From contig KZ538033.1 of the NCBI GenBank assembly GCA_000934665.2, positions 1-64,000 on the forward strand: a stretch of 64,000 nt of DNA, written 5' to 3'. This document shows positions 7,326 to 57,702 of this stretch, piece by piece. Source of the stretch: Catajapyx aquilonaris. Taxonomy: Eukaryota. Numbering within the stretch: position 1 is the first letter of the stretch; every line of letters starts with the position of its first letter. Made by a program: the position numbers and the translations under genes. The notes beneath the pieces were generated by a model. The model saw nothing but the letters and a program-made list of their open reading frames with translations. It was not told the DNA's origin and did no database searches.

Positions 7326-7373
<48 letters not shown>

Positions 7374-18738: not shown

Positions 18739-21700
18739 CTGCACAAAACGCAACAGAAAAACGGGGATTAATCATAATTCCGTTTGTACGCAGCTGCGCG
18801 CGCATGTTTCACGGCCCGCCCACATGCGCACGCAGAATTAAAACCATTCCCACATGAGCTACGTCCGCATGCTCGCGTAGCTCCGTCAGCCAGTTGCTGA
18901 TTGGTTGTAAATACACAAAAAAAAGCAGCTTGGAACCTAGAGTGTACTACCGCATATTAATTACGGTTACTTTGATCTGATTTCGGCTACCAAATTTTAT
19001 TATGTAGGCAGAGAATTCCTTTAATCTTGGGTGTAGTATCGGACATGGTGAATAGTTCGGAATGCTGTGTGCTGCATGCTTTGCCTCATTTTCGAGGGGC
19101 CAAAACATGGCATGTGTTTTGACCGCCCACACTTGAATGCTATGCAAATCCAATATTTAATTTTCATTCGGGGAGCATGGCACTTGTTTCAACACTTGCA
19201 ATAGCAAAAGTATTATTAATGACATTAACTTTGAATGACGTGTGAAATGAAAAGTTCTGAAAACATATCGAATTATTCAGTGCAACTGGCCGTTGTTTTT
19301 CTCCTCTCGTCGCTGACACGAGTGTACTATACATCAATCATGAATATTAGCCTAACAAATATTTGCACTCATTGGCCCGCACATTTCACGTTAGAATATC
19401 CGGATCTTTATGAATTCCTGCTGAAATATTTACAAACCTCAGCCAATATACTTGGGGTCGTGAATATTTGAATAACTTATACTGTACTAATACCAAGCAA
19501 TATTTAAATAGAGAAGTAGGCCAGAGGATGACAGACCTTTGTGAAGTCATGTTTCCATGTAGACACAATGATATCGGATAGAAGCAAATGCGACGGAGAA
19601 AAGGCCAACTCAGCATGTGAACTGTATAAAATACACAGTCCTGCTCAATTATTTCTTACAAAGAGTTTTATCTTCTTGGATTCGTCCCGATGTGGGTTAC
19701 AGCAAAAAGCGGAAAGCGCAATGTTCATGTTTAGCCTCCAGTATTGAACCATTGTTTGATAGAGTTTATACAAATCAAAGTACCATTCTTGCTGCACTGT
19801 ACTGCACTGCATAAATACTGCGATAGCACTCTATTCGCAAAAACAAAAAAAGTCCGGAGCTTACCATCCTAAACCCAGCAAAATCAATACGGCCTGCAGG
19901 ATTGTACACAAATATTCCCTTTGCATTATATTCGCAACAATAAAAGCTGTTGTCACCGTGTCTATCGGGGCCCCACCAAAACATCAAAAAAGCAAAAAAA
20001 TGGCCAGCACTCTACCCACAAATATTCATTTCCCTGCTGCCCCAGATCCACATCGTTCAAAACTTCTGCCATTTTTTAATCCCGTCCCCGAAAAAAAAAA
20101 AATATCCGGGTGCGATAACTCACGTGCTATTTGTTGCCGCGAATGATATTATACACGGCCTGCCTCCGTATAGTTGATTAAGTTGGCGCCAGCATTTCCA
20201 CTGAATCACGAACCTGCACTTTTCATACGATTTTGCTAATTTAGTCCCATCACTGTGAATTAAAGCCTAGATACCGTTTTCATATAAGCGTCGGGAGAGC
20301 TCTCTCCATTGTTGCGCTCTCATCCATTACTCGGGGAATGCGGGCTTCTGCGCATGGGGGGAATTCCATGCGCGAAAATTTTCCATGGGTAGGAGATGAA
20401 CTTCTCCCGGAAATTATTTATCGAATTCCGGACAATCAAGTTGCACGCACTGTCTCCTAGACCCAATTAGGTAAAGCACGCTCTGCAATTATCCCAGATT
20501 ACCAGAGCTGGAGGGGGAGGGAAGATGATCAGAAAGAGGAGGGGGAGAAGCAGCTTGGTCCTATAGGATGAAAAACTATGAGGGAGGGGGAGGGAAGGGA
20601 GGGTCCTATTTAATTTCAAGTTTCTTCCTATCAAAGTCTGACGCGCGCAATCCCAAAACTTTCGATTACAAAGTTTGAAATTCCGTTCGGTAGTAAAATT
20701 ACTGGATAGGACTGGAAGGGGAGGGGGGGAGAGGATGCGAGGAAATAACAAATTAGGGGGGACGATCTCGATAAATGACCGATTTATTAAGCCGTTAATG
20801 CATCGCCGCAAAAGCATGCCTTATTTGTTGCATGCATATTCATGCAAAAGGCAAGGTAATCAATTGTGTACTTTTTTTTACTAACCCCCAGTTTGTGCTA
20901 TTCCTTCCCGGGCCATTACTGCGCATTATTGCCATAATGGGTGACACATTGCTGCTGGCAGGGTTTCAGGCGGATCTCCAAAAAAGTTTTTTTGAAAAAA
21001 AAGGAGAGAATTTGGAGGGACAAACCCCTGAGAACTAAATCCCCACACTTCCCCATCCGAAATCACGGGCAATTTATTCGCCAAACCGTACAAAACGAGG
21101 GCGTAACTCTGGCTGCAAAGTCTGTTTGTCCGACTAACACATCCGCACTGAGCTGGGACCTCTTGGTTTGTTAAATATTCAGCACATGCCCTTTGACTGA
21201 TCATGGGATCAAGCTTTTCAAGCCGAACACATGCACACGCACTTACGAAAAAAATTCGCGAAAAATATCTGCACGAAAACACTGATTTCTCTCCACATAT
21301 GAACCAGCAGATTATTCTGCACACTCGGTTCGATGCACCGAGTAAATGTTTTTCTTCCGCCAAATTTCGACCTGATATGCTACATGCATGTGCATCAGCA
21401 ATCAATGAATATAACCTCTAAATGTAACATATTTTTTGAGTGAATTCCTGGCGAGTCCTCTAGACCGAGAAAGGACACCCACTCAGCTACTTCCAATAAC
21501 CGGATGAGCTTTTCCAAACAGAACTTGTGGACCCAAGGCTCGGGCAATGTTATGCCGGTTGGAAAAGGGATTATCGGTCATGCCTGTTTCTCTTATAATA
21601 GGTTTCCTATTGATCTCCTTTCGGGCTCTACTGGAAGGCCATTTTTTCCCCCTTCAACCCCTTAGTGGATGTTCACGTGTTCTTCAGACCCATCATTTTC

Positions 21701-24700
21701 TTCCTTATCTAGGTTATCTGCCCCATGTTTACCTACGTCATCACGGCATGGCCCGAGCCGAAATTAAGCGATCTAGACGTCTCCTCCGGGCCATAAAAGA
21801 GTCACCTGTAAATCAAGAAGACTGTCGCAAAAGCACATTGCTTCTCCATTAGGCGGAAACAGCAAAAATGCGGCTGTGAGATCATAAATTTCAGTCCCGA
21901 GGATGAAAAATAAAATGTATCTAGAGCCTTAATTTGTTTTTCAGGCCTACCAGGGAAGAGCTGTTTACTGAATAAAAATCCAAGCCTTTTCCTCCCAAGA
22001 TGTACGGCCTCCCATTTCTACTTTCCGTATACCTTCTCCTACCATTACCAAGTAATTACCATTCATCAAGTGTTGGAATAAGCTGGGTTGCGGTGGTTTC
22101 GCCTTAAGAAACACAAGCCGGAGGAATAATGGCAAAGAAACGTGCAGGCGTAAATCCCCTATGATAAACTGCTGCTTCAAGAATGTAACTGGCGATTACT
22201 GGACAACAAAAGCAGCGTTTTCTCTAGTTGCATCTGGAAAATATAGCCGGATTTTTTTCATTTCTTTTTAAAACAAAAAACAAAAAAAAACATACACAAG
22301 CGAAGGGAGTAATGAGGCAGAAAGATTCTTTCGCAATTTTGAAGCCGGAGCATCGACGAGAGGAAACCCTAAACGTCAGGAAGCGGGAGAAAAATGGAAA
22401 ATCTGGCTGGAAAAGCACGTGCAGGAAACATGGTAAAAATTTAATGCACCAAGACCCATGCATTGCAATATTTATTAAGCTACTGCCGCTGCACTGCTCC
22501 AACAGCTCACTCTCTTTTTTTTAAGCTAAAACCAGTCCCGGTGATTTAAGGCAAACGAACACAATCATTTAGAGCTCAATGCGTGTCGACGACTGCAGCG
22601 TGTTACGTCTCTCACAAAAAAACAGTTATTTAGTACCGATTTGAACCCCGACTCTCTCCACTCAATACATCATTCCTCTGAGTATTGACACTCGTCGTCA
22701 GGCCAGGACACCATCGGATTTTCTACCAGATAAATTGCACTGCGATGAAAGCCAGCTCGTTCTTTATAATCACTGCAATTTGCAATTACCCTGCCCTTCC
22801 TTAATCTAATGGATCTAACGCCGGTTTTGCACCCCAAAAAAGTGTATCTAGGTTGCGATCCACTCTTCCTGACACGGCTAGAGGGAAAGGAAAAAAGGAG
22901 TGGAAAAAAAGGCATAGATCCGTTGGCGGCAGTGGCTGGAATCGGAAACAACACTTTCCGGGCCGATTCCCGGCTCGCTCGCATTTGGGCCCAAAACTCG
23001 GAGCCAAAGAACGAGGAGGCGGAGGAAATAGAAGAGTTAGACGGACTTTGATGGAAGAGGATGGGAAGAGCCCAACATCTTCCCGGCGCCCACCGAGAAA
23101 ACCTACTGGCACCAATTGGATTCGACTGCCAAGTTACCAACCTTAGGGATATATCCAGTTATGAATTGAACGACAGAAAACCGCGACCTACATTACGCTT
23201 TTCCGATCCGTCGACACGAAACTGGTCTGAACACGCAACTAAATTGCTCTCGGACGTTATATTCATATTGGGTCTGCTTTATTGCATAACCGTCAATATG
23301 CTTTTGTAAGTTCTGATGGGATGTTAACAAGCTCGTTGAAATAACATACCTGTTACATCAGCATTACAGCATATCCCTAGGCATACGGGCCTTAGTTGCC
23401 TTGGCTTCAACCCATACCGCTTCACAGTGTCGCAAGATAAACCCACGAACCCAGAGTCCATATCTCGCGCCCAAAACCAAGCCGTAAGCCTGGGAAAGGC
23501 TATAAACATCCGACGCACTTGAAAACACCCCCCTCCGAAAATGGGCCGCACTTTCTCCTCAGCCGAGCCCCAGGAGACTATTAGGTTACCATCCCTTTCT
23601 CGTTAGGCTCACACATAATAATCACAACAAACCCCAAGTAATTTACAGGTCTGGAGCACAAAAGGAAGGGAGCCTGGGTGGGCGTGCCTTCCAACTGCCC
23701 CCACAGGGACGACCCATGCTCGACCAAGGAGAATAAGCCCTGATTTTAATGAGCCTCTTAATTGGAAACCTGAGGACAGGGTGTGGTATCCGCTGCAGTC
23801 CACTCGCCCGGCTACCGTGTCCCATTGTGTGAAACCCACGCAGCACGCCATTGCCTGTGGGACCCTCTGGTGTCCGCGTCTGGCAGGAGGAGAAGGCGTG
23901 GGTGCGCCATTTTTGGGATTCACAAAAGGAATCTCGAGCCTTGTTTTTTCTTCGTGGAATCTCGCATGGAATGCATAAAAATCAACCTCCGAGTATAGTC
24001 CATTTTCGGTAGAGAGCCATGATAGCACAGTTAATCTACCAGGCCGGCACCTATTAATTCCCCATGAATATGATGGGGCTAGTGACACACGTAGCCGCAG
24101 GACCCTTCTCATCGCTTCCGTCCCATTTAAGTGAGGTTCTCCGGACTGCGGTGGACACAATGCGTTCAGTCGGGCGCACGAATAACCTCCGGGATCCGGA
24201 AGTCGTCGGAGTAAAATCTCTCCCCTCCGGTTCTCCAGTTTTCTTTTGCGGGGCATCTCCGTCGTAAAGTGGGGGAAGGAGGAGGGGAAGCCCACCCCCC
24301 TTCCCTCTCTCTCTTCTTAGCCTCCCTGTGCATGCAATTTCCGTAAGTCGGTACTTCAAACGGGCCGATCTTATCTGTAGGCGGCTGCCTCGGGACGGAA
24401 GGAAACCGGGTGACTAATTGAAGAAGCCGTCGGGGGCGAAGCAGAGGTATAGCCCTCTTTCCACAATGTCGAGCTAGAGAAGAGCTAGGGGAGTTTGGCC
24501 GGAGAAGGAAAAACCTAGTACGCATCGGGGCTTGCGATGCATTTTTATTACGCCCTTTCCGTACGTGCGAAGGCTTGGGAGCTTGGTTGTGCGGTACGTA
24601 GTGCTCCCTACGGATTTTGCACGAATTCGGCGGAACTGCGGACGTACTAAGCCTTTGTTGAACCACTGTATACAGTCTCTTGAACTACCGGTACTAGAAG

Positions 24701-27700
24701 GTGAAAATGCTAGAAACATTTTCGCAACATTTGCATAAAATCTACAGTAAGAAGAGGTCATGCAGTGTAGGTTGTACGCACAGGAATTTCTCCCAAAACG
24801 CACCGGATTTCCGTATATACGCCACAGGAGTTGTCACCTCTCCGGCAGTATATAGTATCGCGCGTCAACCAGCAGCAGGAAGTCAATTCATTTCGAAATC
24901 CATTCCACCCCCTCTCCACTTCTCTCATTCCGTGCCTCTCATCCCCTCTCTTCTGGTGAAATGAACCTTGTAGTTACAAGAAAGGCGGAACCTTCGAAGA
25001 TTCTCTGCGGTGCGGCATCCAATTACCGAAATTTCTCAAGTCCCCCACTCTCCGGCATAGCCACTTCAATGGCTTTAGTAATTAAACACAGGCATAATAA
25101 ATTACTGAGTAGCGAATCAAAGGACCCTGCTGGATGGACTGGATGGATAACACCAGCCAAGAAGTGGGTGGGTGGGTGAAGACGTAGAAGCACAAAACCG
25201 CAGGGGGGAAAAAAGAAGAAATCCTGCAGCAGCATTGTGGTCCATTAAGCCGTACAGAGAGCTCAGACCATGCACACACACCGGAGGAGGATGCTTCTAC
25301 TCAACGATTTCGACGACTTACAGCAGCCATCAAGGCTGCTTGCGGAATGCTTTTGTAGGCTTGTAATTATAATAAGTAACGGCAAAGGAAGCTCAGCAGC
25401 AAGGAGATGCCGGAGGAGCATCAGCAGCACACCACCACAAGAGCTCGAAAGCTTCTCACAAAGAGGACCCGGAATGAAAAACGGATAAAGCTCGCTCCTG
25501 ACGACTATACCCCCAGCCAGTGATGACTATGATGATAAGCTTCCGAATACTTGCCAGAAATTAGGGGTGTTGTCGGCCATGCTCTACCCCCATCTTCCCC
25601 CCACCGTAATTATTCAGGTGCGCTTCCACACCTTCCATTTATAACCCCCCCGTACCTGCTTATTATTTATGAAGCAGAACTTTGAACTTTCTTAATAAGC
25701 CTGCAGGGGTGCTGCTTATGACGCTTTTGCTGCATTTTCAAGCCCCAGTTCTACATGCCCAAAAAGGTGAGCCAGAACTAATAAAAATCCTGTTACAACA
25801 CTCGACAATTTATTTTCCCACTCTCACCATATTGATCAAACCGGTTGCCAAGTCACACTGATTCACCAACCAGACCGCGCCAAACCAATTTCTAGCAATC
25901 ACCGTTCCCTCTCCCAATCCAATCCCCTCCTTCTCAAACCGGTACCACCCCCTCCAAGACTCGTCAGTGGTTCCCAACCCTAGGGCCGTGTAGATGTTAA
26001 GAAGGTCCTCGTGCTGAACAGCAGAATCTCTCAAGAGAACAACCTCGCTCTCTCCTCCGATTAATCAAGCCGTCCTCTCCAGCGGCAGCCCAATTTGTAC
26101 CCCCGACCCCAAACACTGGGCACAAGAGGCAGATCCAACCCTCGCCTGTCAATACGAATCTCCTTCTCTAGTCTTCTCTCTCGTTCTCTCTTCCCCCACC
26201 ATCCACCAGTCAGGGGTCATGGGGTAATGAAATTAACAGGCACAAGAGCTCGGTCTGGACCGGACCTCATGTCTGATCAGATCTCTTATCATATAAATCA
26301 CATTGTCGGTATGGGGTTACAGGGTGCTTCGGATGAAATTTCGCAATTTATCTACGCAATAATTAGCTGCCTTCACCCCTTTCACGACCAGTTCAAAACG
26401 TGGGAGTGGTGTCGGAACTTGCACATGTTGGACACTGCTCTTATTTGGACGGCCCGATTTGGACACGGTCCGGTTGGAAAGACACGGGAGAGAGTAAAGG
26501 ACATGTGATGAGATGGGTTGGTGCACACATGGGCCATGCACCTTTTTCGGGGGACACCGAATAAACAGAGTTGTTTGTCCAAATGGCAAGGGCAAATCTG
26601 GCCCCGGTTTTGTGCTGTGCGCAGCAATCAAGTCTGGACGGGAAAAAGGGCCGTACCACCAGACTGAATGAAACGTCATAATGTGCTTGGCCAAAATTGC
26701 TGTTGTAAATTGCCGAAATAAAGAAGTATGAATATTTATGTGCAGTACTGTTTGCGAATAATGCGCAGAGACATTAGCAGAGCACACACAGCCCCGTGCT
26801 TTAAAACGATTGCATGTACATGGGGTGGGGGGGAACTGCAATGCTTAATCCAAGCAACGAGTCGCTTGACGACAAGCTGGAATGAAGTAAAATTAATTAA
26901 AAAAGCGACAAACACATTTCTCATCACGAGGCTACACGGCTCTTGCTTTAGTGAGCGGCTTCTTTCGAATTAAATGTGTTAAATATTACATTCCTTGCCT
27001 TGTTAGAGTGTACCTCAAACGTCTACTTGGAAATGCTGCGAAGGTACTCCATAGTTATGATAACATGGTACAGTATATTGTACTTCGCAATAATTACTTA
27101 GCTACTGTTCGCAACATAGTCTTGCGAACATGCCTACGCAAAGTGATACAGACTTTCCAACCACTCGGGACCAATGCTTCTGTCCTCTCCGCAGTAATTG
27201 TTACTGTTCTCAGTTTGACTGAAACAGGAAGGTTTTCATAAAGGATGCTTACAGTGCAGTTGTGGCAATAATGTACTCAGAATGTGTAAAATGTATTGCA
27301 AATTGCAATCATGGAAAATAACACTCCCAGAATTGATTTTGTTGTATACAGTTTCTCCCCCTATAAAGGCATTAACTGAAAGGTGAAACTCAGTTGTGAA
27401 GTAAGCCTTTAATGACACGACGACTAAGTGTAGATGGGAAATTTTTTGCAGGTATGTTAATGACAGTACAGTACAGAGCATGTTATGTACACATGTGCAA
27501 GTATGCTGTGTAATGACGCGCCAAACAAAAGCGCTTGTGTGTGTTAACATACTGTAACATCTTCCGCGTATCAGATCGGGCCGAATTTCAACCTTAGTTG
27601 CGAAAATTATTTAATAAGCTTCAGGTGCTCAGCAAGCTAAGATGTGCCTATAGAATTGTACAAAAAAAATTAGTGAGGCAATATTGAAAGCGAAGAATGG

Positions 27701-30700
27701 AATTTCCATTCCTCCGCTTGGAATATTGAAAACTGTCAACATTTTCTGCGCGCTAAAGGAAGTGTTCGACTTGTTCTTAAAACGTTCTGACAGAATGTAT
27801 GAATAGCATCTGGGCCGCCAAATGTCGTACTTCTGGACTGCTTCGGCAGAAAACTGAGTGACAAAGGGCGATACGGATCCCGTACTGTATAAATCGATTC
27901 ATTTCCGTTTTTCTGCGGTATGACTGTCATCACCAGTGGTGTCAAACTTCTCTCTTGACGCTAAATGTGCAGCGAGCAGGACATGTCCCATAACACGACG
28001 CGAAATTGATAATGTACAGTAGTACTGATGCCGCCAAATATTTCGAAAAAATCATCACATATCGCGATGAAATTACAACTGAAAAGTCAATATTTCTCAA
28101 AAAGTGATACAGAAAAATTTATTTATCGCGTACCGTTATGGCTAGTTGTCAAAGTATGGACACAAGCCGGACATGTTGCCTCGGGCCAAGTAAATAGGCC
28201 AACGACACAACCAACTTCGGGTCAGAAAACTGCGTTGTAGAGTCAGAAAACAACACTGGCAGCTTCAGCGAAATATACCTCCACACAAATTGCATCTAGA
28301 CTCGTTATCCTCGCATATGGTTACATTTACAAGATTTTTGCATATCGGGAATCGGACTATAGGGCCACAAGGTATCTACTGTAACATTCATGCTGCATAT
28401 GTTTATTTAAAGCACTGTAGTCGCAATAAAAGCTGCGTACTTCATTATATAAATTCCAACTTGGAAAATGAAACTAATTAAACGAGAATGCAAACATTTT
28501 TTTCGCACATATGAAGCGATTTTATTATATCCTCCTGACCAAGCTGAATCAATACCTGAGGCCAAATCCCTCGACTGCTATCAAAAACTGACCATTTCCC
28601 CCAGAAATCCACTGAACGAAAAAAAACCCATAGGCGCGCAATGCAAATCCCGCATTTTCGAGCAATTAAAATAATTTGACGTAACTTTCGGCGTCCGGTC
28701 TGCCCACCAGAAAAGGCTTCAACGATATAGCGCAGGGTTTTTTATTTTATTTTAAAAACCGTCCGTCCCACGTACCGGTATAACTTGCTGGAAGCCACCA
28801 TTGATTCCCCTGTCAAGAGCACCAATCTACATCCGCCAACCCGATATAAAACCTGCACTCATGCATAGAACCAGCCCTCGCTCTAGCCCCAGCCTTCCTC
28901 AAAGGCCTCACTTCAGAATGTAATTGTCACACCCCTCACACCCTGCCCAGCCACACTTTGACCGCCACCAAAAAATGGTTCAATAAAAGCTACTGCGGAG
29001 CATATCGAAGGAGCGATGTGCACATACTCTCAATTTTAAACAAAATTGCTTTCACTATTTTTTCACTTTATGTAAGTAGCTAATATACTTTTGAAATGAA
29101 ATGTGAAAAAATATTTCGGATTAAACTGAAGCAAAATTTTATTTTAAGCCACACCCAGAATCATATGATATCCGACTGTGCCTTTTATTGAAATAGTAAA
29201 AATTACTCATATTAATATAGAAAATACTGTGCACTGCTACAACATGGTTGTAAGATAACTGCAATGTAATATTTTGAGAGAGGTAACGAGCACTGCAGCA
29301 CAAGGCTTGTTTGTTACGGTATAATGCTGTTGCATCCAAAGCAGAGCTCGCGAGTCATAAGCACAACATTGGCCACAGGGCACGAGCTCACATCAGGATG
29401 AATTAGTTTATTCAAGTCTTAGACTTTGCCAAGGATAATAACAAACAAGCAGTTTCGCTGAATACACTATTCAAATGCGTTCCATAAATAATTAAAGAAG
29501 AGTTTCCCCTTCCACCTCCTGACCCCCTCTCTCTGTACTGTACTCACGTTAACGCGGATAGTCATAATTGTGTTTACCTACTCCTACAATGAAGCTTGAT
29601 TTCAGCGCAGAGGACCAACTGGCCTATGCTCTTCACAACATGGACTGCACTTCACTTCGCTACTGGCTGCCCCGAGTCCTTTGAATGTTCCGAACCAGCA
29701 GGTTTTGCCCCCCAAAAAAGAGCCTAAGAGGACCACAAACACTGGCTCTTTTTTACCAGATCAAGTTGCCCCGAGGGGATTTTAAAATCATCTAGCACTG
29801 TTATTAACCGAAAAGCACTCTGGCTTTTTTTTTATATACCCATGCACTCACCGTCAGCAAGTATACACTGTTTGTCAAGTCCAGGCATCAAACATTAGGC
29901 CTAAAACACTCTGGGAGCGAGGTTAATAACTAGAATCTAATTTGATTCGTTAATTACAAGCAACGTGCGTTGGATGATCCGGACGGATGCGGGATCCCTC
30001 AAGTCTCTGGGCCGCCTAGAAGCGCCATTAGCGCGATAATTTCCCAGTGGTTGGTAGTCACGAAAGTGTGTTAAATTGAAACTGGTGCCGGGGTATGGAG
30101 TGGCATCTCTGCCGAGTCCATCTGAAATGCAGATGGAGTAGTTTTGAGTGGGGTTGGGGGGTGGAAGGTACGAAATGTATGCCCGGTAATTCCACCACCC
30201 CACTTGGAATCGATAAGGGTTCCATAACCGGCTTGGGGTCCCCTGGAATTATCCCGCAGTCGGCTTTTCTTTGACAGCTGGTGGCAGAAGTGTTGCGATT
30301 CATGACCTATTCTCGCATGCACTGTGCAAATTTCGCAACAATATGGGGCCTTCAGGGGGGTAGTGTTGCACCTGTTCGCTACACTTGTTCGACTGTGGGG
30401 CTGATCAGCTTTCATTAGATTAATAAGGCGGATCCCCGATGCCGACGCCGCCGCAGAGTAAGAACTTAAAGGGGAACAATGCGGGCTTTGTGCCGAACCC
30501 AACCTAATAACAATCCCTTGATCTGACAAGTATTTGACAACAGCAAGGCCTTGTAATCCCTTATCGGATGCCAAACTAGTGACAAGTCGTGATGATAACG
30601 CTATTGTGATGCACCCACAAGCAAAAGCTCCGGGAAGCTCCACTTTCAACAGTGTGTGTCAATCCTAAATACCCAAGTTTACTGCATTATTAGTCATCAA

Positions 30701-36130: not shown

Positions 36131-36159
36131 TCTCTCTCTCTCTCTCTCTCTTCTCTCTC
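36131..36159. repeat. (TC)n microsatellite, interrupted
   Basis: Seen directly. Confidence 0.85.
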
Positions 36160-38336: not shown

Positions 38337-38426
38337 CATTACCGCAGCACTTTGACGATTTCGAACGCCCAGCGCGACCAGTCTGAACACTTACCTGCAA
38401 AGAGAGAAATTAATGCGCTTTTAGTA
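38337..38426 (-). promoter_or_regulatory. Candidate recursive splice site (junction 38395/38394) with a 52-nt cryptic exon
   Basis: Minus strand: TACTAAAagcgcattaaTTTCTCTCTTTGCAG|GTAAGT, then a second donor GCG|GTAATG 52 nt downstream. Confidence 0.75.
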
Positions 38427-40014: not shown

Positions 40015-40223
40015 AAAATAGCAGGAATCGCTGCTATTATGAACAATAGGTACAGAAATCGCTGCGATTTTAACAGAAGGTAACAGATATCGCTGCTATT
40101 TTGAACAACAGTAACATAATTCACTGCTACGTTAACTACCGGTAACAGAAAATCACTGTTATGTTAACTGACCGTCACAGAAATCACTTCTACGTTAACT
40201 AGCGGTAACATAAATCGCTGCTA
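40015..40223. repeat. Degenerate minisatellite, about 7 units of 30-32 bp
   Basis: Consensus approximately AACWRNNGGTAACAGAAATCRCTGCTAYKTT, head to tail. Confidence 0.88.
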
Positions 40224-45807: not shown

Positions 45808-45966
45808 GATACATATGTAATTGAATTACATTGTTGGTTTCCAGTTTTGCCAACTAGAAGATTGTGAAGTTTGAGTTAGCACAGTTGCACTTGGAGTTGT
45901 CACAACTGGCAACCAACAATGCAATTCAATTACCTATGTATCATGACTTTAGAGTCACCCTGTATA
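45808..45966. mobile_element. Palindromic MITE remnant with a Tc1/mariner-like end
   Basis: 39-bp arms (45808-45846 and 45904-45942) with 3 mismatches; the right flank ends AGTCACCCTG-TA. Confidence 0.6.
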
Positions 45967-48900
45967 TTGGATCACCACCTAACCACATATCGTGCTTTGA
46001 GTGAACTTTGATTATGAAGCTTGAACATATATCCAGAACGGAACTTAATTTCATATTGCTCTGAGCAAATACCCGGTGAGGAGCGCTCTGATGCACATGT
46101 GCGTATTTTTGCAAAATATTATCCGCCATAATTTAACGCCCACTATGCAAGAAAAGCTAAAATATTCAAAAACATCTGCCACACTTTGTTGCGAAGAATG
46201 TAACATCGACATATTTGTTGTACACAGTCATGCTGGATAATATACTTTTTTTTTACTTTATCCTCCTGAGACCATGCTCATCATGTCATCATGGTCATCA
46301 TGTGACCATCCTTGATTCCATGCTTTTGGGATTCTCTGTAGGTAATGTATTCAGGGGTTGTTTGTCCAGATGGCATTCTGTAAAATGCGCGTTTAATCCC
46401 GCCTCGTCGCATCTTGTCATATATCCTGTCAAGCGATCGACATTGGAAGGTATTGCACAGCTGGAAACCGCCTCCAAAAACACCTACAGTGAGTTCTCAA
46501 CTAACGACCGTTACACAGCGCAGGTTGCAACCTAGCACCCTGGATTAGACATTTTAATTTGCGCCCAAAATGTAATTTCGAGGCAGCCTAGAGCTGTTGT
46601 GCCGTCATCTATAGCAACGTCAGTCAAACTAAGCCTCTGCCTGACTCACTATTCGATTCCAGTAATCCTTTCCCCCCCTGAAGCTTTTCAAGGTTGTCTT
46701 CATGTGCGCAAATGCCACCGGGTGTCACAGTTCTCATCCTCACTTATCCAGGCAGCCAGGCAGAGTACACAGTGATCTCAAACAGACGCGGTTTCCAGCA
46801 CACTTGTCACTTTTTTATATGCACAGTGTGCTCAGTATCGTGACATCCCGCAATATTCAAACCAGTTCTTTTGATGACCCGGCAAGGTGCTGACAAAATT
46901 TGAATGTGTCCCATTGTTTCGACTTGCCCCCATCCACATTAGTTGGAGCAGAATTCCTCCCCTATTTTTGAGTCCCGGCGGCCCAGAAAATTCGTATTTG
47001 CCTTTCCCCAGTCACTGCTGTTTACTTTTTCCAGATGACAGCGTGTGGCACATTCGTAAGTCGATAGGCCCGAGACCCATCCCTGAGGGGGCCTTCGTGT
47101 TATTTGCATAATGTGCACGCATCATTCCCTATAGTCTAGTGGGGGAGGGAGGACTATTGCTATAGGCACAGGCCTTTTACGGACGACTGTGTGCTCATCC
47201 ACTTCCGCCTCATGGCCGCTTGCAACCATGCAGATTTGAGTTCAAACCCGTAGAAAATCTTTTGTTTTTAGGCTGGGAGGTTTAGTTTAGAACTGTAGAG
47301 AAGCGAAGGAGATATTTACAACATAACCCAACACAGTGCTAACTTACTCTATAGCGCACTGTAGACATGACTGGCCATCCTATGAAGGTCAATGTGTATA
47401 TTTCTGATCTATCCCAACCAGGAAAAATACACACCGGGTTATATAAATCCTCTCCAAATAAATTCTTTACAACAAAGATGCCCTTGTCACCCAACCTGGC
47501 CAGCCTTCACCTTGGCCACCAGGAAAACAAACAAATTGCGCAACATTCGCACGATCATTGCTGATTACTCCCAAAGCAGGAAACCCTCAAAAAATATTGC
47601 AAGGCCGAATTTTTATGTTTTCCAAGGCTCTTGCTTTTCCTCCCCCATCAGCAAGAGCATGCTGGCAAAGCAACAAGGTGATTAGTCGCCTACTCCGGGT
47701 AAGCTTACCCCACATTTCCTCACCTCACGGATACTTCTGGAGGCCCCACCTGATTTATGACCTCTCTACTAAATGAGGTTCAAATTCCACGCTAATATTC
47801 GACACCTCCATTGGTTGGCATACCTTCCGGGGAAAAAACGCGAATTTTGTGCGGTTTTGGTGTGAAGCCCTGCAAAACTGCTACTATAAACCAGGCACGA
47901 AAGTGTCGTAAACGTCCCGTTTTCTCCGCGGTCCGTAATTCCCACACTCAGACGTCCAAATTAACGGCCGCCGGTCTCCGAATGGTCATCGCGTTATTTC
48001 TCCCAGCTCAGTAATTAAGAACAATTAGCTATTTCTGCATTTTCTTCCTTCTTGTATAGGTCTATCTAGCCATCTATTTTTTTGGGAAGGCGTGTAGCAA
48101 GCTTTTCGAGAAGCCTGAGAGAGCTGGCCTTCCCAAAGCCATTACAAGCTCCGTCCGGGCGTGAACGGGCAGAGAAGGAGCATTCTTACAGCTTCACACG
48201 AGATCACAGGGATATGAAGCGGCGCTTGGGCACAGAGAGCTTCGCCAGCTGTGGCCTTTCTAACCTCGTGAACCCCATGAACCCTGGGAGGCAGCGTTTT
48301 CCGGCCAAACGACCAAGGCGTGAGGAATGCTTCAGACGGTCCTCTCATGGAAACCCTTCATTTTGCCATCTTTGACATGCATGCCATGTGAACGTCTTAT
48401 GTACTCAGCCTGGGACATGCAATAAGGCGTCTACATGGGAGGCTGAAACAACATTGCACATTTTGGCTGGAGTCATTCATAACTCCAGCAGGAGCCCCCA
48501 TTTTTCAACGTCACTTCCTTCTCACCGTGCTTTCGCCATGATTAACAACTAGCGAGGCAACAGGGCCTTCATAAATCCCAGACCAACCCCCGGAGCTCTA
48601 AATAGTGTAATTAAGAAAATGGGAAACATTATCCTTGACTCTGGATCAGGCACCTCGCAAACCGAATCCGGATTATCCAACCTTAAGCGAAGTCATCTTG
48701 TGCACTCGCCTAATTACTCACAGGCTCGAACCCAGGACTTACTCAATTTGCATCTAGAAACGCAATCAAATCTTGGGGATAGAGGCAAGGTTCGCCATCC
48801 ATTAGGACTGTACCTGATGCCTTAATCGCCAAGGTGGACCTGGCTGGAATTGGTCCAAAAATAGTGTCGCTTCCGCATATAAATAACGGATCGGGATGAT

Positions 48901-49796
48901 TCGCCCCTAGGTTCGCCCTCGGGGCAGACACATACAAATGGCCAGCCGCCTTCAAGGTGTCGGCCCTTCGTTTTGCTAAGGTAGGAAGACCTTTTGTCTC
49001 ACGTGGAAGAATACCCTCCTTTGTCTTGATTTCCTGGATGGCTCACTTGGGCTCGCATGTACAAGGGGAAGCCCCATCGAGCCTATGCAAGATCGGAATA
49101 CTGGAGCAGGAAGACCGCCGTTTGGAAAATTTATTCCGCTCCATTCCTCTTCCGCTTCGTGGCAGTATATCCCCAATTCCCTGCATCATTCCATGTTCTT
49201 TTTCCTCTTTTTTTAAAAGAAAAAAAGAAGGGGGGGGGGGAAGCGCCTTTTTCTACACCCCTTGGAAACATCAGGTCTACTCGCATTCCCCGGAATGAAT
49301 TTATGGGCGCTGACACCACGTGTAAATGTGGCGACACGTCCATGGAACCAGCGTAACTTAATCTGGAATATTCCAGTTGTATGTAGAATGTTACCAGAAA
49401 AAGCAGGTCAAGTATGGCCGCATGTACGGAAAAAAAAGTCTCCTGCTGCATTATCATAAAGAAGACAGGAGTTAGCGAGCAGCGCAAGAAAACCGCATGA
49501 AATATAAGTACAATCCCGGATCTTCATTTCTTCCATTCATTTCCCGGGAATTATGGCCACGGCATTCGGAGAGCCCGCCGCTTTTACGTGCATTAAAAAA
49601 CTCTCATGGTCCAGAGGCCTGATTTACCTCGAAATGTCCCTCCATCGGTTCCTAGAAAGCGAGCCATCCTTCAGAACGGAATTTATTCTCAGCCAGTCCC
49701 AACAATAGCCCCCAGATTTCTTCCCCCAACCCAACCCAGCAAAAGTCTATACCGCGGCCTAGGCTAGAGGATGCAGTTCCTGGCCAAGAGAATTCC

Positions 49797-49800
<4 letters not shown>

Positions 49801-49840
<40 letters not shown>
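49801..49840. repeat. (CT)n microsatellite
   Basis: 20 perfect units. Confidence 0.97.
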
Positions 49841-49844
<4 letters not shown>

Positions 49845-52800
49845 CTGAGAGAAAAATAAGAAAAAGAGCAGACCATACCCCCAAGAAGAAGAAGGAAAAA
49901 AAAATCGCCCGGTGGCGCTCGACAAACGGTCTGCAGACTGCCATAAGTTAGACAAATGGAGTTATCAATATAAAAACGATGACGACGTGATAACCATAAA
50001 ATTCGGCACCAAAATTGCTACCGCTCCAGGAAAAAAGGGTGACCACCACGTGGAGAGATATTGGATTTTTTTCTCTCTCTCGCCCGACATCAGCAGACCA
50101 AGAGAACAATGTGATCTCTGGCAAATATGGTACAATATGCAGATGGGTGGAATTGGTTAATGACAGAACGGGCAGCAGTAAAGTGGGGCCTTTGAAAAAC
50201 ACTGCAGCTCAATTTAATGTCAAGTGATTTCTAGATTTGGAGGTTGGGCGCAGTCAAACAGCAATTAAAACCTATTTTTGAAGCATTAACAAAAAAATAC
50301 GACCGGCACATTTTAATTAGTATTACAGTGCAAATTGTGCGAGTAATTTGTACTTTCATCTCAATGGCCTCACCCATTTCGCCATGTTGCTGAAGTGCAG
50401 TCCTTTTTGTTTAATTTTTAATATGACAATGTACGAATGACAGTGCTCTTAGGCGTCTCCAGACGGTTGTTTGAAGCACACGTAAGGTCGCAAAAAATTT
50501 GTAAAACCTCTGAAGCAACTGTTGGCATTTTCACATTAGGAAATGGTCAACTTCAGTCTTATTATTAAAAATGCAACACACATTTCAATGCAATTTTGCA
50601 CAAAATATTCTGTCAACTGCACGCCCTAGTCCCACAGACTTTTAAATAAATTACTCGACTCACAACAGTGTTACCACAAAGCATTACCGGCACGATTTTA
50701 AACAGACGGAAAAATACGCGTTCAGACCAGTCCACTCTCTCCATGTAACAAAATTAGCCCATCCCGTTACCTGACCATGTTACCACCAGGCAACGAGTTA
50801 CATCAACCCAGCTTCCAAGTGCTTCTACCCCAAACCGCAAAAGCCGGCCTAGGCCTCTGCGGGCTTTTCCGCCTTACACGAGGTGCCCGGAAAAGAGGAT
50901 TGACCCCCATCGCCCATAGGGAGATCTCCCCAGGTTATTTATCAACAGGCGTGCAGCAACATGGGGTAAAGGAAAAGGAGAAAAAGGAATGACGCCGGAA
51001 GAATAGCCGTCAGACCAAGATCGAACCCCATCCTTCACCTGAGAGACTCTGGCGCCATGCCCAGAAAACTGCAAAAAGAAAATTGTGTCACGAAATGACA
51101 AGATACACCCTGCTGTGTTGAAGGAAACAAGGAGACACCCTTTGCGTGTAAGCTTCGAACTTTTTCGGTGGGATCACTTCAATTCTGATGGAAAAAATAC
51201 TCTCCAAGGTCCCGTATAAATTAATCATGCGGGTATATACTCTCGTCGTGGATTAGAGGATGGCTTGGTAGCTTGAATCCTCCGCCATTATCTGCATGCA
51301 TCTGCAGGCACGCAGGAGGAACGTGCACATGTTCTAATTTTAATCCGACAAATGTACAGTGTGGGCACAAAATTACACTCATTTTCCGTGTGGAATGCCA
51401 ATTCGTGGCGGGGGTACAGTCGGGACATTTTTTCGCAATTTATTATTAAACGGGGACGGATCCGTACCCGGCGACAAACTTGTGCATTATTTATTATAAT
51501 GAAGTTGCTGCAGGTTGGACTCGACGGCGGGGCATGCAACGGGGTGTTAGGTGAGAGTGCAGAAGTTTATTAAAAATAAATGTGCACATTTTGTTAGGAA
51601 TGTGCAAATTTCGTCCTTTCGCTTTGAACTATGCAGATGTTGCAAGTGCCAATATTATCGCCGAGCAAAAGGTTAGTGCGAATAATACTGAACGCTCTAC
51701 AGCACCTGCTGGTTTATACATCAACAGAGCTGTTGACACACGAGTTTAACATGACGTCAAAGGTTCTCATGAGGTGACAACATGCAAAATATAACAAGCC
51801 GGTGGGTAAATTATTAATTATAAACTCTTTGAAAATGCACCGTTGAACAAAGAGAACCGAAACCGCCAAATGACAGAAACACGGCGTCGACACACCACGC
51901 AGGTTTTTGCAAAAAAAAATATATTTATGAAAAAGAGAGCCTAAACCCGATCACTTTCCCTCAATTACTCCTGAAATAGTGTCCAAAAAGGAGAGTTTAA
52001 AACGAGCAGTTTTAGTGACAGAGACATACCGTGAGGGTTGAAGTCGTTCCAAATTCGCGTGGGGAATAATGTATCACCCGAGTACCTACGACGGACAATC
52101 GTAATCCTTGCAAAACGCGCAACTTCTGCTCTGATTGGGAATTTCATCCATCACGGTTCTGTTATACAGGAATGGGCGCAACTGCTAACTGCAACTGGGG
52201 GAAGGCCTCCTCTTCTCTCTATATATAGTTTTTTCTTCGTTTCCGGTCAGGATCCAGTTTCAAGGAGAAATACGAGCCTATTAGTGCGAGCAAATTGGTT
52301 AGGAACGACACAAAAGCAACATGGTGGGGGTCCAAATTGATCAAATTCCAGAGAGTTCGATTTCCTGCCTCTCACTTCCAATTATGTCACCATAGTGCAA
52401 AAACCTGGCGAGATAGAAATAGTCTAACAAGCAATTTTTTGCAACATCCAGTGCACTGCAAAGTTTGTACATAAAATGAAGTGAAACTCGCGTCAACATT
52501 ACCTGTGTGTACCACTCTCTGAAACTCAAATGGCAGAGTTTGGGGCAGTCCGAGTTTGCAAAAATCACTCTGCTCTTTTTCTGCACTAGAAACCAAAAAA
52601 GGCTTAAAGCACATAGGGCCCAATCACTCACTTCCATTTCCTTCTTTATGGGCTTTACCTGCGTGCTCACACCGTCCCATTTTACGCTTTTTGTGCTCGC
52701 AAAATCGTTCGCCCACCCATGAGGGTGTAAACCCGATTCCATTTGGAAAACAGTTGCATGCCGGCTCGCATAATTTGAAACCAACTATGGCGGAACTGGA

Positions 52801-55800
52801 GGGGGTCGATCGAGAGACCCCAACAGCGATGGTAGCTCTTAACAAAAACCTGCCTAGCAGTTGAAGGAGTCAAAAAGTGCGCAAATTCTGATATTTTGCC
52901 GGCAGTGAAATAATACTGGGACTGCATTATCGCATTTCGCAAAATGCCACTGGGCATTACAAGACCACACATTACGTGGTGCAAGTTCCTGTACAATGCA
53001 GTACATTGCCTTGACTGAATTCAAATTCGCAAAAGTATTTATCCGAGTTCGTAAACGCGAATGCAACAAAAATGTTTTGTCGCACATAATTATTATTGCA
53101 TTAATTTTGACAAATGAATCACTTTCAGCAATTAAATCCCACCTCACATGAAATACACCGTAAAGATTCGCAAATTGGACGAATCGTTTGAAACGTGTAA
53201 TAAACGTGGGACATTTATTCCCAGTCACTTTGAACCTTTTCACACGCCCGATATTTCTTTCTCGAGCGCCAAACCAGCAGCATTGGCAGTATTTTCCATG
53301 CACACAGCCCCCCAATCGAACCAAGCAATTTCCAATCATAAGCTGCACTGAATGTCAAGCCAGGAAATATGCTTTTCATCGCCGTTCCCCCCAAACTACC
53401 CAAATGATGCCCAGGTGTTACGATAGCAATAGAAATGCACATTCCGGCACTAACAAACGACCCTGTGTTCAATTACTAAACGCAGTCCATGTTTTTACGC
53501 CTTGCTATGCGTACATTGTATTCAACAAACTTTTTCCGGTTCTGCTGTTTTACAGACTTATTTTAATTGAAGCAGAGCTAAGGGGTGGTGCACGTAGCCA
53601 GGAAATTAACTCTGAAGTGCACGGAAAACATTCCAAGTAGCCATTAGTGCAAACCATTTATGAGATTCGGAGGCCGTTACAAAGCACACAGCAGAGAGCC
53701 TGTGCAGACTGAAGCATTTATGGTCCACGAAACCTGCACTCACCCTCCTAGATGCATAGAGCCAGCCTATTTTTCTATGTGAACACACGTCACATTTTTG
53801 TTACTAGGCTGCACAGCGGCCCATGTACTGTTCTCTGAGGGTTTTCAGAGGAGTAATCGTGGTTGCAGCTGCAGCAAGCAGATTCAAGTTTGAACTACGG
53901 AAACTTTCTCCCCCTTGAATTGCCATAATCCTTGCAGAGCATTTCTCATGCTGCCGCGGAGGAAAACTTGCCACATAAGAAATCACGATTCCATCTAAAA
54001 TTAGATCTCATTTGCGAAGCGTTTCATCATCAGTTGGAGGGGAAGACATTCCAGTGGCCTTACTAAGACGGCAGGGGGAAAACAGAGGCTCACTATAAAA
54101 ATGGGAGGGGAAAAAAATTTGACCATTTACTACCAGAAAATTCAGCGAAAAAATTAGTCTAAGCGAATCCCAAGCAATTCCCAAGTCCCTCACTATTTAT
54201 ACGACTCTTTAATTCGATTCATCACCAACCCTGCGACACTTAGCCGGATCGAATGAGTTCGTACCCAACTTTTTTTATGCACCGGGGAGATAAAGTTGTT
54301 GCAGGAAATTCCTAGGACGGAAGGGTGAAAGATGGGTATAAAACCTATCCACCAAAACCCTTACTAGTTTCGTTAGATTTCGATTGCTTTCCACCCAATT
54401 TCTTGGCACTTTCGAGATCCTCCGGACTGCGATCAAGTCCCACTTAATCAGATTATGGCCGCCCATCATTCAAGCTGCTTATTTCGCTAACGAAGTCCGA
54501 GTCATTAATCAGAGAGAGAGAGAGGGAAAGGGGAGGGGACGCTGTTATATCCCCAAATGACATTATAGTTGTCTTTCCGGATGATGCCCACAGCCATCAA
54601 TAATGTGCCGACGCAGTAGAAAACGCGAGCAAAAAAGCAGGAGTAGCAAGTGTGTGGTATACTGATATGGACAGATAATAGAAACATGTATGAATTTCAA
54701 TATTTAAAAAAAGTATTCACTCTCCTTCCAATTCACCACATAAAAATCTGGCCCAAGTTCTCAAATATGACCTCGCAGCACTCTATTTATTTATAAGGTC
54801 TCATGTATGCTGAATCTTGAAGTAGTACATTCCATGCATATATAAAGGAAAAAGGATTCAAGATTGCACTGATTATGCGATTCCATCGACGGATATATCC
54901 CCCTCCCACTCGAACTGCAATGCAGACGTGGAAAAGGTACATATACAATCGAGATTGATGGCAATATTCAGAGAGAATATAAATCACCTCGAAAAGTACG
55001 GCAGCATGAACTGAGTTAGGACCTACATTCGCCGGATATTCGCTTTTATGTCTCCATATCCAAGTGCATTTCGGGTTACCAAAAGACCAGATTTGAATGT
55101 CATAAGATAGAAAATGTGTTTCCCATCAGAAATGTGCGGGGCTGAGGGAAACTTTAGAGGTATAGAGGGGGCTATATATACACACACACTTCCTGCCTAG
55201 GCACACTGTATAAAACCCCGGCTGCAGATGTGATCAATGACTCCCTTTGCAGTTCTGAGTGATGTTTGCGGTATGGCATTATGGGGACGATTTTTTTCCC
55301 GGTCCGGATCCGAGAGAGAAAAAAAATGATACACATATATATAGTATGTCTGCCAGAAATAGTATTTCCTAATTAGTTCCACTCTATTCCTTCAGCCCTC
55401 ATTGCAGCTCATATACCGTTGGCAAGCAGAAATTGGAATGCTTATTAATTAATGCGGCTAAAAGGAGTCACGGGAGCACTACTCTGACGCCATCCTCCAA
55501 ATGAGAACGGCCCTGTCCTGGTTACTAATTCACGTCTACTAATATTATGTCATCGTCCGGCGACGTAATCGCCGTCCATCAAGAAAATATGAATGAGCAT
55601 TACAATTCAAAGCGATTTTTATAGGTCCGGCTCAGAGATGACCACTGTCCTTTTCTGCCGAATTTGTGGAAGGAAAAAAAGTGCTGGAGGTTCCGTCTGT
55701 GCTTATCAGCTCACTGAAGGAGAAGAGAATTGCGGCAGTCTTGTGAGTATTGAGGCCAAACTGGTTCGGACCAACCTGCAGGGCGTTCCGATGCTTTCTG

Positions 55801-57097
55801 CTTCGCCACCCGATTCCCTTTCCTCTTTTTTTTCCGGCTTCTTTTCTTCTCCACCAGTTTACTCCCAGGACTAAACTATATCAAGCATATAGACCAGTAT
55901 GGCCCCAAAACTGTGCTTCGTTAACTTGTGTGAGGCAAGAGTATAAGTGTCGATAATGGGTAACGACTTTAAGTTTGTTAGAGAAATTCTCCTCCTCCCG
56001 CACCCTCACCCTACCCGAAATGAATCTCTTGCAGAAACTCGGCTCAAAGTTCGAAATAATTATCAGAGTCGGTGCCTGGCCGAGAGTATACACTAGCTGC
56101 ATCTCGCCCATTATCTTTCACACTGGCAAAATTTCTACAGCAGCACGAACCGGATGGAAACTCTCGAAAGTCGCAAGTTTCTGTCACGTGACTAGTCCGC
56201 TAACTATATACACAAAACCAGTAGTTAGCCTCACCCAAAATGCAATGTGAAACCGATCGGCCGACACGGACAGCCAACAATGCTGGTGGAGCAGGGTTTG
56301 AAAAGCACTAAATTGCCGCCGAAAACACAATATGTGTTTGCGATGGCCCCACTATTGTGCTGGCTGGGAAACAGGAGGATCCTTATTAAAATAACAATAT
56401 TTATGCGTCGTGCCCATAAAAGCCGAATCACAATGTTGCATAAGCGGAAAATAATGGCGCTGACTCGAATTTCATCGGCGAATTAGTAAGTTCCATAACA
56501 TTATAAGCATGCTAACATGGTCAACACAATGGGCTAATTAGGCTCGTTTAATGCGGACCCCCAATTTTAGTAGTCTCCTTAGAATTTAACCGGTTGGATT
56601 TGTACCATTGCGGGCACAAGGTGAGTCAAAAATATATTACACATTCCAAGCATGGCCCCAGTTTCCAATCAATATTCCTCTCATTTCTTGGCAACGATTA
56701 CTGCCTCCTCCACTTTTGATATTACAAAGTCTGAGGCTGTAATACTCGCCGGGGCTGAAGTTCCCTCGCCGCCAATCCTCATGTCCCACTTGTATTAAGA
56801 ACCCCCTTCTGAAACGGTGCTGCGAGACAGCTGACAAATTATTCCACTGCCCTAGGAATATCGATTTGTGCGAAAAAGGGTGGGGTGGGTGGGTTGGTAG
56901 GGGGTCGCGAAATGCCCAATTAGCATAGGCATCTTGTTATTCTGATTGATAAAGTTGGGAGAATGGTCCGGATGGCTTATTAGTATAATGCATAATTTGC
57001 ATATCTTCCACGATTTGAGGGGGAGTTCCTACGTGTCCAGACGTGAAGTTCATTATCTGCATGGTGAAATATTCGCTGCGCCACGTTTCAGGCAATG

Positions 57098-57164
57098 ACT
57101 TACTGTTCGGTGTGTATTAAAGGATGCTTACCTGTAATGAGAGAGAAAAAAATCATGTTAGTCA
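57098..57164 (-). promoter_or_regulatory. Candidate recursive splice site (junction 57132/57131) with a 28-nt cryptic exon
   Basis: Minus strand: TGACTAACatgaTTTTTTTCTCTCTCATTACAG|GTAAGC, then a second donor ACA|GTAAGT 28 nt downstream. Confidence 0.75.
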
Positions 57165-57663
57165 ACCTTTGACAACAGCACTTTGTCGCAATGAAATTAA
57201 TTACAGCGCCCCAGTGCGGTCAACCTCTGACCTCCCGGCCCACGCACTAATTAATGTGAGTGGGGATTAATCCGTAAGGTTAAATCCTTGTTTAGAAGAG
57301 GACGGAGTGGACCTTGTAAACGAACGGATTAGTTTCCGTCACGTTAGCAAGGTGTGTCATTTTGTGTTCGACTCCCTGTGGAGGGTTCGTGTTTTGAGCC
57401 CCGGGAATTGTGCAATTGATGGCACGGCAAATCCCGGTTACAGCTGCAAGTGGGGCATAATTAATTCCCTCAAGCCAAGGGGGTATTACGAGTGTGTGAG
57501 CAGGTGCCACCAGGGTTAGCCTAACCCACGATGGAGAGCGGTGCCACGATAGAACCGGATTTATGACTCCCAAAGTGTAGTTTGGAGAAAAGTAAGGGGG
57601 GGAAGGGGGTTTCGGAAATTTCAAAGGATTTAAACCTGGATGAAATATTGGCATCTCACAATA

Positions 57664-57702
57664 TACAGGGTGTGCTGAAGTTGATGATACGTACACCCTG
57701 TA
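57664..57702. mobile_element. Tiny Tc1/mariner-like remnant (TA-CAGGGTGT...ACACCCTG-TA)
   Basis: 10-bp perfect inverted ends including TA, around a 19-bp spacer. Confidence 0.45.

Follow-up and report, generated by a model that had tools for sequence, protein, structure and literature searches.

We report that a giant intron in the gene for a furin-like protease 2 orthologue carries two sites, at 57132/57131 (site 1) and 38395/38394 (site 2), which we consider probable recursive splice sites. Both lie on the minus strand, which is the sense strand of the gene, within a window that we define as the whole 64,000-nt stretch of DNA analysed. At each site an acceptor is fused directly to a donor, and at both the fusion, pyrimidine tract, branch motif, long host intron, cryptic exon and segment length that can be read from the DNA agree with those of recursive splice sites. 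The composite signals, strand, rarity and spacing of the sites are properties of the sequence as it stands, and are laid out below together with the splicing pathway that we propose from them.

The host gene and its giant intron

Protein homologue searches and Pfam identify the host gene as a furin-like protease 2 orthologue on the minus strand. Pfam matches to Peptidase_S8, to P_proprotein (E = 4.5e-25) and to the GF_recep_IV/Furin-like cysteine-rich repeats give it the subtilase catalytic domain, P domain and cysteine-rich repeats of a PCSK5-6-type proprotein convertase. The named homologues among the 120 matches listed are mostly furin-like protease 2 or furin, and the best 30 homologues share 62.7-67.5% identity with the gene product across eight exon stretches. 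In the protein searches the insect relatives are all roughly equidistant, with no close relative among them. The label Fur2, under which a sequence-only reading of this DNA had placed the intron, implied a Drosophila setting; judged by the homologue distances the organism is not Drosophila, its taxon being left at an arthropod-like, non-drosophilid animal, and the label denotes orthology only. The parts of the gene inside the window are as follows.

18739..64000, minus strand: portion of the giant intron inside the window; its 5' donor and the catalytic-Asp exon lie past base 64000
18579..18738, minus strand: catalytic-His exon, with acceptor AG at 18740-18739 and donor GTGAGT at 18578-18573
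1486..15062, minus strand: host-gene exons 3' of the His exon (approximate tblastn limits)
15062-14890, 6369-6238 and 5966-5820, minus strand: downstream exons (tblastn, approximate)
4560-4189, minus strand: downstream exon stretch interrupted by a short intron (tblastn, approximate)
3888-3130, 2653-2465 and 1668-1486, minus strand: downstream exons (tblastn, approximate)

The His exon is itself matched by Peptidase_S8 (E = 2.4e-09, profile positions 34-85). Between it and the catalytic-Asp exon lies an intron of at least 45,262 nt, which had earlier been taken to end at 57164; this end is wrong, given that tblastn places the donor exon outside the window and the intron extends beyond base 64000. 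In a sensitive tblastn search with four homologues, their N-terminal ~200 residues, including the conserved GKGVVVSILDDGIQTNHPDL block, found no match in 18740-64000. None of the 48 intronic open reading frames of at least 110 aa matches a Pfam family, and neither Rfam families nor tRNAs were found in the intron. The stretch between the two sites thus holds no ordinary coding exon, in agreement with the sequence-only reading, as judged by the lack of any tblastn, Pfam, Rfam or tRNA match there. With at least 45,262 nt the intron is a very long one, the fly introns that host ratchet points ranging from 11.3 to 132.7 kb with a mean of 45.2 kb (Duff et al., preprint), and a high-confidence recursive site is present in 63% of fly introns longer than 40 kb (Pai et al., 2018).

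Anatomy of the two sites

Both sites combine, in the same order, a branch motif, a pyrimidine run, the fused splice signals and a short candidate cryptic exon closed by a second donor.

57126..57161, minus strand: candidate ratchet point 1, AG at 57133-57132 fused to GTAAGC at 57131-57126
57161-57157, minus strand: site 1 branch motif CTAAC, likely branch A at -27
57152-57139, minus strand: site 1 pyrimidine run, 14 nt
57131-57104, minus strand: candidate cryptic recursive exon 1, 28 nt, closing donor GTAAGT at 57103-57098
38389..38426, minus strand: candidate ratchet point 2, AG at 38396-38395 fused to GTAAGT at 38394-38389
38426-38420, minus strand: site 2 branch motif TACTAAA, likely branch A at -27
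38409-38399, minus strand: site 2 pyrimidine run, 11 nt
38394-38343, minus strand: candidate cryptic recursive exon 2, 52 nt, closing donor GTAATG at 38342-38337

The core reads CAG/GTAAG at both sites (57133-57126 and 38396-38389, minus strand), the slash marking the fusion of acceptor and donor. Pyrimidines occupy 15 of 17 positions at site 1 and 13 of 17 at site 2, and both tracts carry TT at -6/-5. The two fusions thus stand where they had been seen by eye, on the sense strand, each with a CTAA-type branch at -27 and a donor 28 or 52 nt downstream, and the segment lengths of 18,737 and 19,656 nt that had been given for the intron were obtained again on recalculation.

Neither candidate cryptic exon has a length that is a multiple of 3, and the first would read VSIL followed by an in-frame stop if the intron is in phase 0. 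The donors that would compete at each site can be compared in their intronic half, the bases of the upstream exon lying beyond the window. At site 2 the rebuilt GTAAGT is stronger than the downstream GTAATG; at site 1 the rebuilt GTAAGC is no stronger than the GTAAGT that follows it.

The 500-nt flanks of each site have no second copy in the window, nor do the sites resemble one another, for which reasons we reject an origin of the sites from a repeat family. In a metagenome scan the 22-nt core of site 1 had no match, and that of site 2 matched a single contig over 23 nt with no similarity in the flanks, which we regard as a chance match.

Rarity of the sites

All 389 AG/GT sites on both strands of the window were scored with a generic log-odds model of our own, with frequencies fixed beforehand, and the bit scores given here refer to this model. 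Site 1 scores highest (14.9 bits) and site 2 second (12.2 bits). Both are outliers: the next best site reaches 5.1 bits, as does the best on the antisense strand, and a good acceptor half and a good donor half occur together at these two sites alone among the 389. The motif YAGGTAAG is present in three copies on the sense strand and in none on the antisense strand of the window, the third sense copy, at 10472, being one without a pyrimidine tract. This bears out the expectation that motifs of such strength would not be equally common on the antisense strand.

Under the same model, 400 block (local) shuffles produced a top site of 14.9 bits or more once and a second-best site of 12.2 bits or more not at all. 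When the count was instead of sites above thresholds that were chosen after the sites were known, the shuffled sequences held 0.147 sites on average, with two or more in 4/300 global and 3/300 200-nt-block shuffles. The CTAA, the TT and the downstream donor were not part of the scoring but were picked post hoc, and their frequencies among 190 acceptor-like controls are to be read in that light: CTAA falls within -45..-16 in 12 controls, TT at -6/-5 in 40, and GTRAGT within +16..+100, of which site 1 has an instance, in 6. The weaker class of donor found at site 2 is common, occurring within +16..+100 in 48 of the 190. TT is moreover a weak discriminator in this organism, because five of the seven ordinary acceptors of the host gene share it when inspected by eye.

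Proposed order of splicing

We posit that the intron would be taken out in at least three steps. In the first, the upstream exon would be joined to the acceptor at 57132, which would place GTAAGC directly behind the exon and so rebuild a 5' splice site. The rebuilt site would then be spliced to the acceptor at 38395, with GTAAGT rebuilt in turn, and the third step would join this second rebuilt site to the acceptor of the His exon at 18739. Exon definition over the short cryptic exon (28 or 52 nt), which ends in a second donor, would probably help each site to be recognised. The cryptic exon would normally be discarded because the rebuilt donor would win the competition between the two; if retained, it would shift the reading frame. 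As to the earlier reading of these positions as recursive sites, the sequence anatomy (fusion, tract, branch, long intron, cryptic exon and spacing) lends it partial support; stepwise removal, together with the use of the sites, the order of the steps and the skipping of the cryptic exons, is what we infer from that anatomy.

Alternative explanations

It is improbable, in our judgement, that both composite motifs are fortuitous and are ignored by the spliceosome or give rise to splicing noise only. By simple arithmetic under uniform base composition, each strand of 64 kb should hold about two copies of the 8-mer YAGGTAAG by itself, and the copy at 10472 is an example without a tract; one shuffle did yield a site that equalled site 1 in strength; and the window was selected by eye from many, so that some fortuitous cases are to be expected. 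What chance accounts for poorly is the pair, which no block shuffle reproduced, its confinement to the sense strand when the antisense strand offers nothing above 5.1 bits, and the presence at both sites of CTAA at -27 and of a downstream donor. Somewhat less remote, and still unlikely, is that each site is the acceptor of an alternative or poison micro-exon of the ordinary kind, 28 nt long at site 1 and 52 nt at site 2, which would send the transcript to decay with no re-splicing at the AG/GT. The downstream donor at each site, which at site 1 is a perfect GTAAGT, would suit such exons, as would the fact that both shift the frame and that the first holds an in-frame stop if in phase 0. Against this, ligation of an exon with GTAAG at its start would at once create a strong donor anew, and in flies it is mostly such rebuilt donors that are used, with removal of the cryptic exon (Joseph and Lai, 2021). 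At site 2, moreover, the downstream GTAATG is weaker than the GTAAGT that would be rebuilt.

We give very little credence to a further possibility, in which GTAAG would be the ordinary donor of unannotated exons on the same strand, stemming for example from a promoter inside the intron or from a non-coding RNA nested there, and the pyrimidine tract would be exon sequence. CAG/GTAAGT is also the normal consensus of the exon/intron junction at donors. However, the succession of branch motif, pyrimidine tract and CAG is the order of an acceptor, inspection by eye of the 100 nt upstream of either site showed neither an acceptor nor an open reading frame that convinced us, and the intronic open reading frames of at least 110 aa are without Pfam matches. 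A transcript that started there would also be devoid of the signal peptide, prodomain and catalytic Asp. Recursive splicing at both sites remains the reading that we consider probable.

Comparison with known recursive splicing

To our knowledge, good documentation of recursive splicing is confined to Drosophila and vertebrates, to neither of which the present organism belongs. The closest likeness is to the Drosophila ratchet points, known from Ubx, kuz, luna and several hundred further cases (Duff et al.; Pai et al.; Joseph and Lai). The sites described here share with them the sense-strand AG/GT fusion, a host intron longer than 40 kb, and a marked pyrimidine tract with TT at -5/-6, a dinucleotide that 196 of 197 fly ratchet points carry (Duff et al., preprint). 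Segments of some 18-20 kb are a further shared feature, 18,737 and 19,656 nt here compared with a fly mean of 17,953 +/- 9,039 nt (Duff et al., preprint), as is a cryptic exon that is short, out of frame and closed by a donor: the candidates measure 28 and 52 nt, and the fly cryptic recursive exons are of ~50 nt, generally out of frame and followed by a downstream donor (Joseph and Lai, 2021). The present sites differ in that the host is not a drosophilid and that they are known from sequence alone. In addition, whereas the rebuilt donor is the stronger one at fly ratchet points, at site 1 its intronic half does not surpass that of the donor downstream.

Within the same gene family, the Drosophila paralogue Fur1 (FBgn0004509) is recursively spliced according to Pai et al. 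(2018), whose supplementary table lists it in five rows, with introns of ~38.6 and 40.5 kb and cores such as ..CTCTCTTTGCAG/GTAAGC. Fur1 is a paralogue of the host gene and not its orthologue, and belongs to another species; the likeness between the cores is that of a shared consensus. The vertebrate recursive exons (Sibley et al., 2015, as reviewed by Joseph and Lai, 2021) resemble our candidates in exon definition through a downstream donor, in the competition between donors, and in the poison-exon outcome upon inclusion (Joseph and Lai, 2021). The vertebrate cases are, however, mostly expressed exons, with few fully suppressed intronic sites (nine; Joseph and Lai, 2021), whereas the cryptic exons here would be very short and of the fly type. 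A third comparison is with locust NPF1 (PMC8892266), where a recursive site in a very long intron, one of 230 kb, has likewise been predicted from its motif, and likewise in an arthropod outside the drosophilids. That prediction used a fly matrix and was supported by U2AF65 RNA immunoprecipitation, whereas our candidates come from the DNA.

The sequence-only reading had further supposed that recursive splicing was undescribed at this locus. Full-text searching brought up no paper on recursive splicing of Fur2, the sites tabulated in Duff 2015, Burnette 2005 and Joseph 2018 lying outside its scope, and there is no Fur2 row in the table of Pai et al. (2018). To that extent the supposition stands; it is qualified by the fly paralogue Fur1 being already listed. 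The locust NPF1 prediction was the sole non-drosophilid arthropod case that our literature search found (PMC8892266).

Implications

Annotation that relies on ORFs or on mRNA does not reveal recursive splice sites. When the donor of a ratchet point is damaged in flies, the frame-shifting cryptic exon becomes included, and loss-of-function alleles of kuz and Ubx have arisen in this way (Joseph and Lai, 2021). The anatomy described here is that of the textbook, and our understanding of recursive splicing would be unchanged by it even if both sites are used. A more far-reaching possibility, which draws on fly Fur1 already being recursively spliced and which we regard as unlikely, is that the ratchet points are real in an arthropod distant from Drosophila, that stepwise removal in segments of ~19 kb is an old feature conserved in the furin-type convertase genes of arthropods, and that the out-of-frame exons of 28 and 52 nt would act as poison exons, a built-in switch for the dosage of the convertase. 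If used, the two sites would be functional elements deep within the intron of an essential processing protease, and they would add to the thin evidence for recursive splicing of the fly type in other arthropods with long introns.

Host gene and extent of the giant intron

A single minus-strand gene spans the entire window, and its exon stretches were located by tblastn with four homologues as queries.

Exon stretches of the furin-like protease 2 gene (tblastn)
18738-18579 (tblastn limit 18738-18568), minus strand: exon stretch with the catalytic His; Peptidase_S8 profile positions 34-85
15069-14890, minus strand: exon stretch
6369-6238, minus strand: exon stretch
5966-5820, minus strand: exon stretch
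4560-4189, minus strand: exon stretch
3888-3130, minus strand: exon stretch
2653-2465, minus strand: exon stretch
1668-1486, minus strand: exon stretch

In these stretches Pfam identifies Peptidase_S8, P_proprotein (E = 4.5e-25) and cysteine-rich furin/GF_recep_IV repeats. The P-domain exon as query matched 257 proteins at E <= 0.001 (2533 candidates); among the 120 matches listed, furin-like protease 2 and furin were the commonest names, so that "Fur2", the name used in the sequence-only reading, is good as an orthology label. The best of the listed matches showed 54-55% identity, with ~81-84% of the query covered. Identity to the best 30 homologues stays at 62.7-67.5% throughout the eight exon stretches, the named ones coming from many insect orders, and a second protein search found no close relative among shorter proteins either. 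Judged from its sequence, the host organism is one other than Drosophila.

Relaxing the search to E values of up to 50 and a word size of 2 still left the homologues' N-terminal ~200 residues, which include the highly conserved block around the catalytic Asp, without a match in 18740-64000, so the donor exon of the intron upstream of the His exon lies past base 64000. This gives the intron a length of at least 45,262 nt, and 57164, the upper limit drawn in the sequence-only reading, is the wrong end. Two short tandem arrays (40022-40223 and 41469-41560) of 31-nt (62-nt) units, 74-77% matching, lie within it, in the segment that separates the two candidate sites.

Elsewhere in the gene, straight-through translation of the Ser-exon region (4560-4189, minus strand) meets a stop, and the region resolves into neighboring open frames at 4569-4339 and 4335-4165, so that this exon is probably interrupted by a short intron. 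An inverted repeat, 1-95 / 762-856, has 95-nt arms 97% complementary and 666 nt apart (left arm truncated by the window start), with an (ATT)n microsatellite (174-239) between them; it could represent a foldback or MITE-like element inserted into the intron that follows exon 1668-1486. The sole N of the window, at 13067 within a long G run (13 G before, 6 after), is probably a homopolymer position that assembly or base calling left uncertain.

Anatomy of the two candidate sites

The fusions of acceptor and donor reported at 57132/57131 (site 1) and 38395/38394 (site 2) are both present on the minus strand, each with the branch motif near -27 and the downstream donor that had been described.

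Components of the candidate recursive splice sites
57161-57157, minus strand: site 1 branch motif CTAAC
57152-57139, minus strand: site 1 pyrimidine run, 14 nt
57133-57132, minus strand: site 1 AG
57131-57126, minus strand: site 1 donor after the AG, GTAAGC
57103-57098, minus strand: site 1 next donor GTAAGT, closing a 28-nt cryptic exon
38426-38420, minus strand: site 2 branch motif TACTAAA
38409-38399, minus strand: site 2 pyrimidine run, 11 nt
38396-38395, minus strand: site 2 AG
38394-38389, minus strand: site 2 donor after the AG, GTAAGT
38342-38337, minus strand: site 2 next donor GTAATG, closing a 52-nt cryptic exon

The likely branch A falls at -27 in both. Recomputation returned the same segment lengths, 18,737 nt from site 1 to site 2 and 19,656 nt from site 2 to the His-exon acceptor (18739), and at least 6,869 nt of intron lie upstream of site 1.

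Rarity of the composite signal

The 8-mer YAGGTAAG alone is not rare (3 sense vs 0 antisense), whereas the composite signal is. The third sense copy (10465-10479, minus strand; last base of the AG at 10472) sits in the 8.4-kb intron that separates the exons at 14890 and 6369; it has no pyrimidine tract, and its 24% pyrimidines upstream rule it out as a candidate recursive site. An AG|GT junction also occurs at a conventional acceptor, that of the second catalytic exon (15064-15057, minus strand; ..ttcgcag|GTGTTC), and its poor donor half makes it an example of a non-recursive AG|GT in the same gene.

The two strands together have 389 AG|GT sites, of which sites 1 and 2 alone pass even loose joint thresholds. 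Under a log-odds model with frequencies set in advance, their scores are 14.9 and 12.2 bits against a mean of -10.0 (SD 6.4); the runner-up, at 5.1, is antisense, and the equally strong antisense motifs against which the sequence-only reading had cautioned are absent. Acceptor-like tracts number 94 and 98 on the two strands, so strand composition is no explanation. Dinucleotide shuffles, at thresholds picked post hoc with the sites known, gave a mean of 0.147 sites, with two or more in 4/300 global and 3/300 block shuffles; under the log-odds model, the top site of a block shuffle reached 14.9 bits in 1/400 and the second-best 12.2 bits in 0/400. Features outside the scoring, but selected post hoc, were compared with 190 acceptor-like controls: both sites carry CTAA within -45..-16 (12/190 controls) and TT at -6/-5 (40/190), site 1 has GTRAGT within +16..+100 (6/190), and site 2 a weaker-class downstream donor (48/190).

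Comparison with known recursive splicing

The Duff et al. preprint gives fly recursive introns of 11,341-132,736 bp (mean 45,164 bp), segments averaging 17,953 +/- 9,039 bp (median 16,368 bp) and TT at -5/-6 in 196/197 ratchet points. Pai et al. (2018) report a high-confidence recursive site in 63% of fly introns > 40 kb and an enrichment of strong donors in the segments after recursive sites, and Joseph et al. (2021) place ratchet points at the 5' end of short (~50 nt) cryptic exons, whose closing donor is usually outcompeted by the rebuilt donor. Sites 1 and 2 show every sequence feature listed for fly ratchet points with one exception, donor strength at site 1: on its intronic half, the exon half being past the window, the rebuilt donor GTAAGC has no advantage over the GTAAGT that follows.

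Alternative explanations

Chance assembly of such motifs would fit the ready occurrence of the 8-mer; on the shuffles and scores we hold it quite improbable. In metagenomes scanned for conservation of the cores, site 1 had 0 matches, and the single match to site 2, of 23 nt, was dismissed as chance. Within the window, the 500-nt flanks on each side of both sites are single-copy, and site 1 is unlike site 2, so they are not repeat-derived.

The sites might instead open poison micro-exons that are included with no re-splicing. Taking the intron as phase 0, as the alignment ..NYD|.. would suggest, the 28-nt cryptic exon runs into a stop and the 52-nt one shifts the frame; the GTAAGT that closes the site 1 exon would suit such inclusion, the weaker GTAATG at site 2 the recursive pathway, and we regard this account as unlikely. 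That the donors belong to unannotated exons on the same strand seems very improbable; none of the 48 intronic ORFs of at least 110 aa has a Pfam domain. The intron contains no Rfam family and no tRNA.

Prior description at convertase genes

FBgn0004598 we take to be fly Fur2. A Tribolium paper matches this identifier to "Endoprotease FURIN", and the Pai et al. (2018) supplementary tables have 0 rows for it; Fur1 (FBgn0004509) has 5 rows in supplementary file 1, at least one of them marked as shared with Duff et al. Full-text searches found no paper for "recursive splice" with "furin", nor for "recursive splicing" with "Fur2", the site tables of Duff 2015, Burnette 2005 and Joseph 2018, which could include fly Fur2, lying outside the search. 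Among non-drosophilid arthropods, the literature search returned only the locust NPF1 intron, with a motif-predicted recursive site backed by U2AF65 immunoprecipitation.

The likeliest reading, which we favor with some reserve, is that sites 1 and 2 are fly-type recursive splice sites carried by the furin-like protease 2 gene of a different arthropod-like animal, and from their anatomy we infer that the intron would be removed stepwise. If real, they would add a further case, with textbook anatomy, to a well-known phenomenon.
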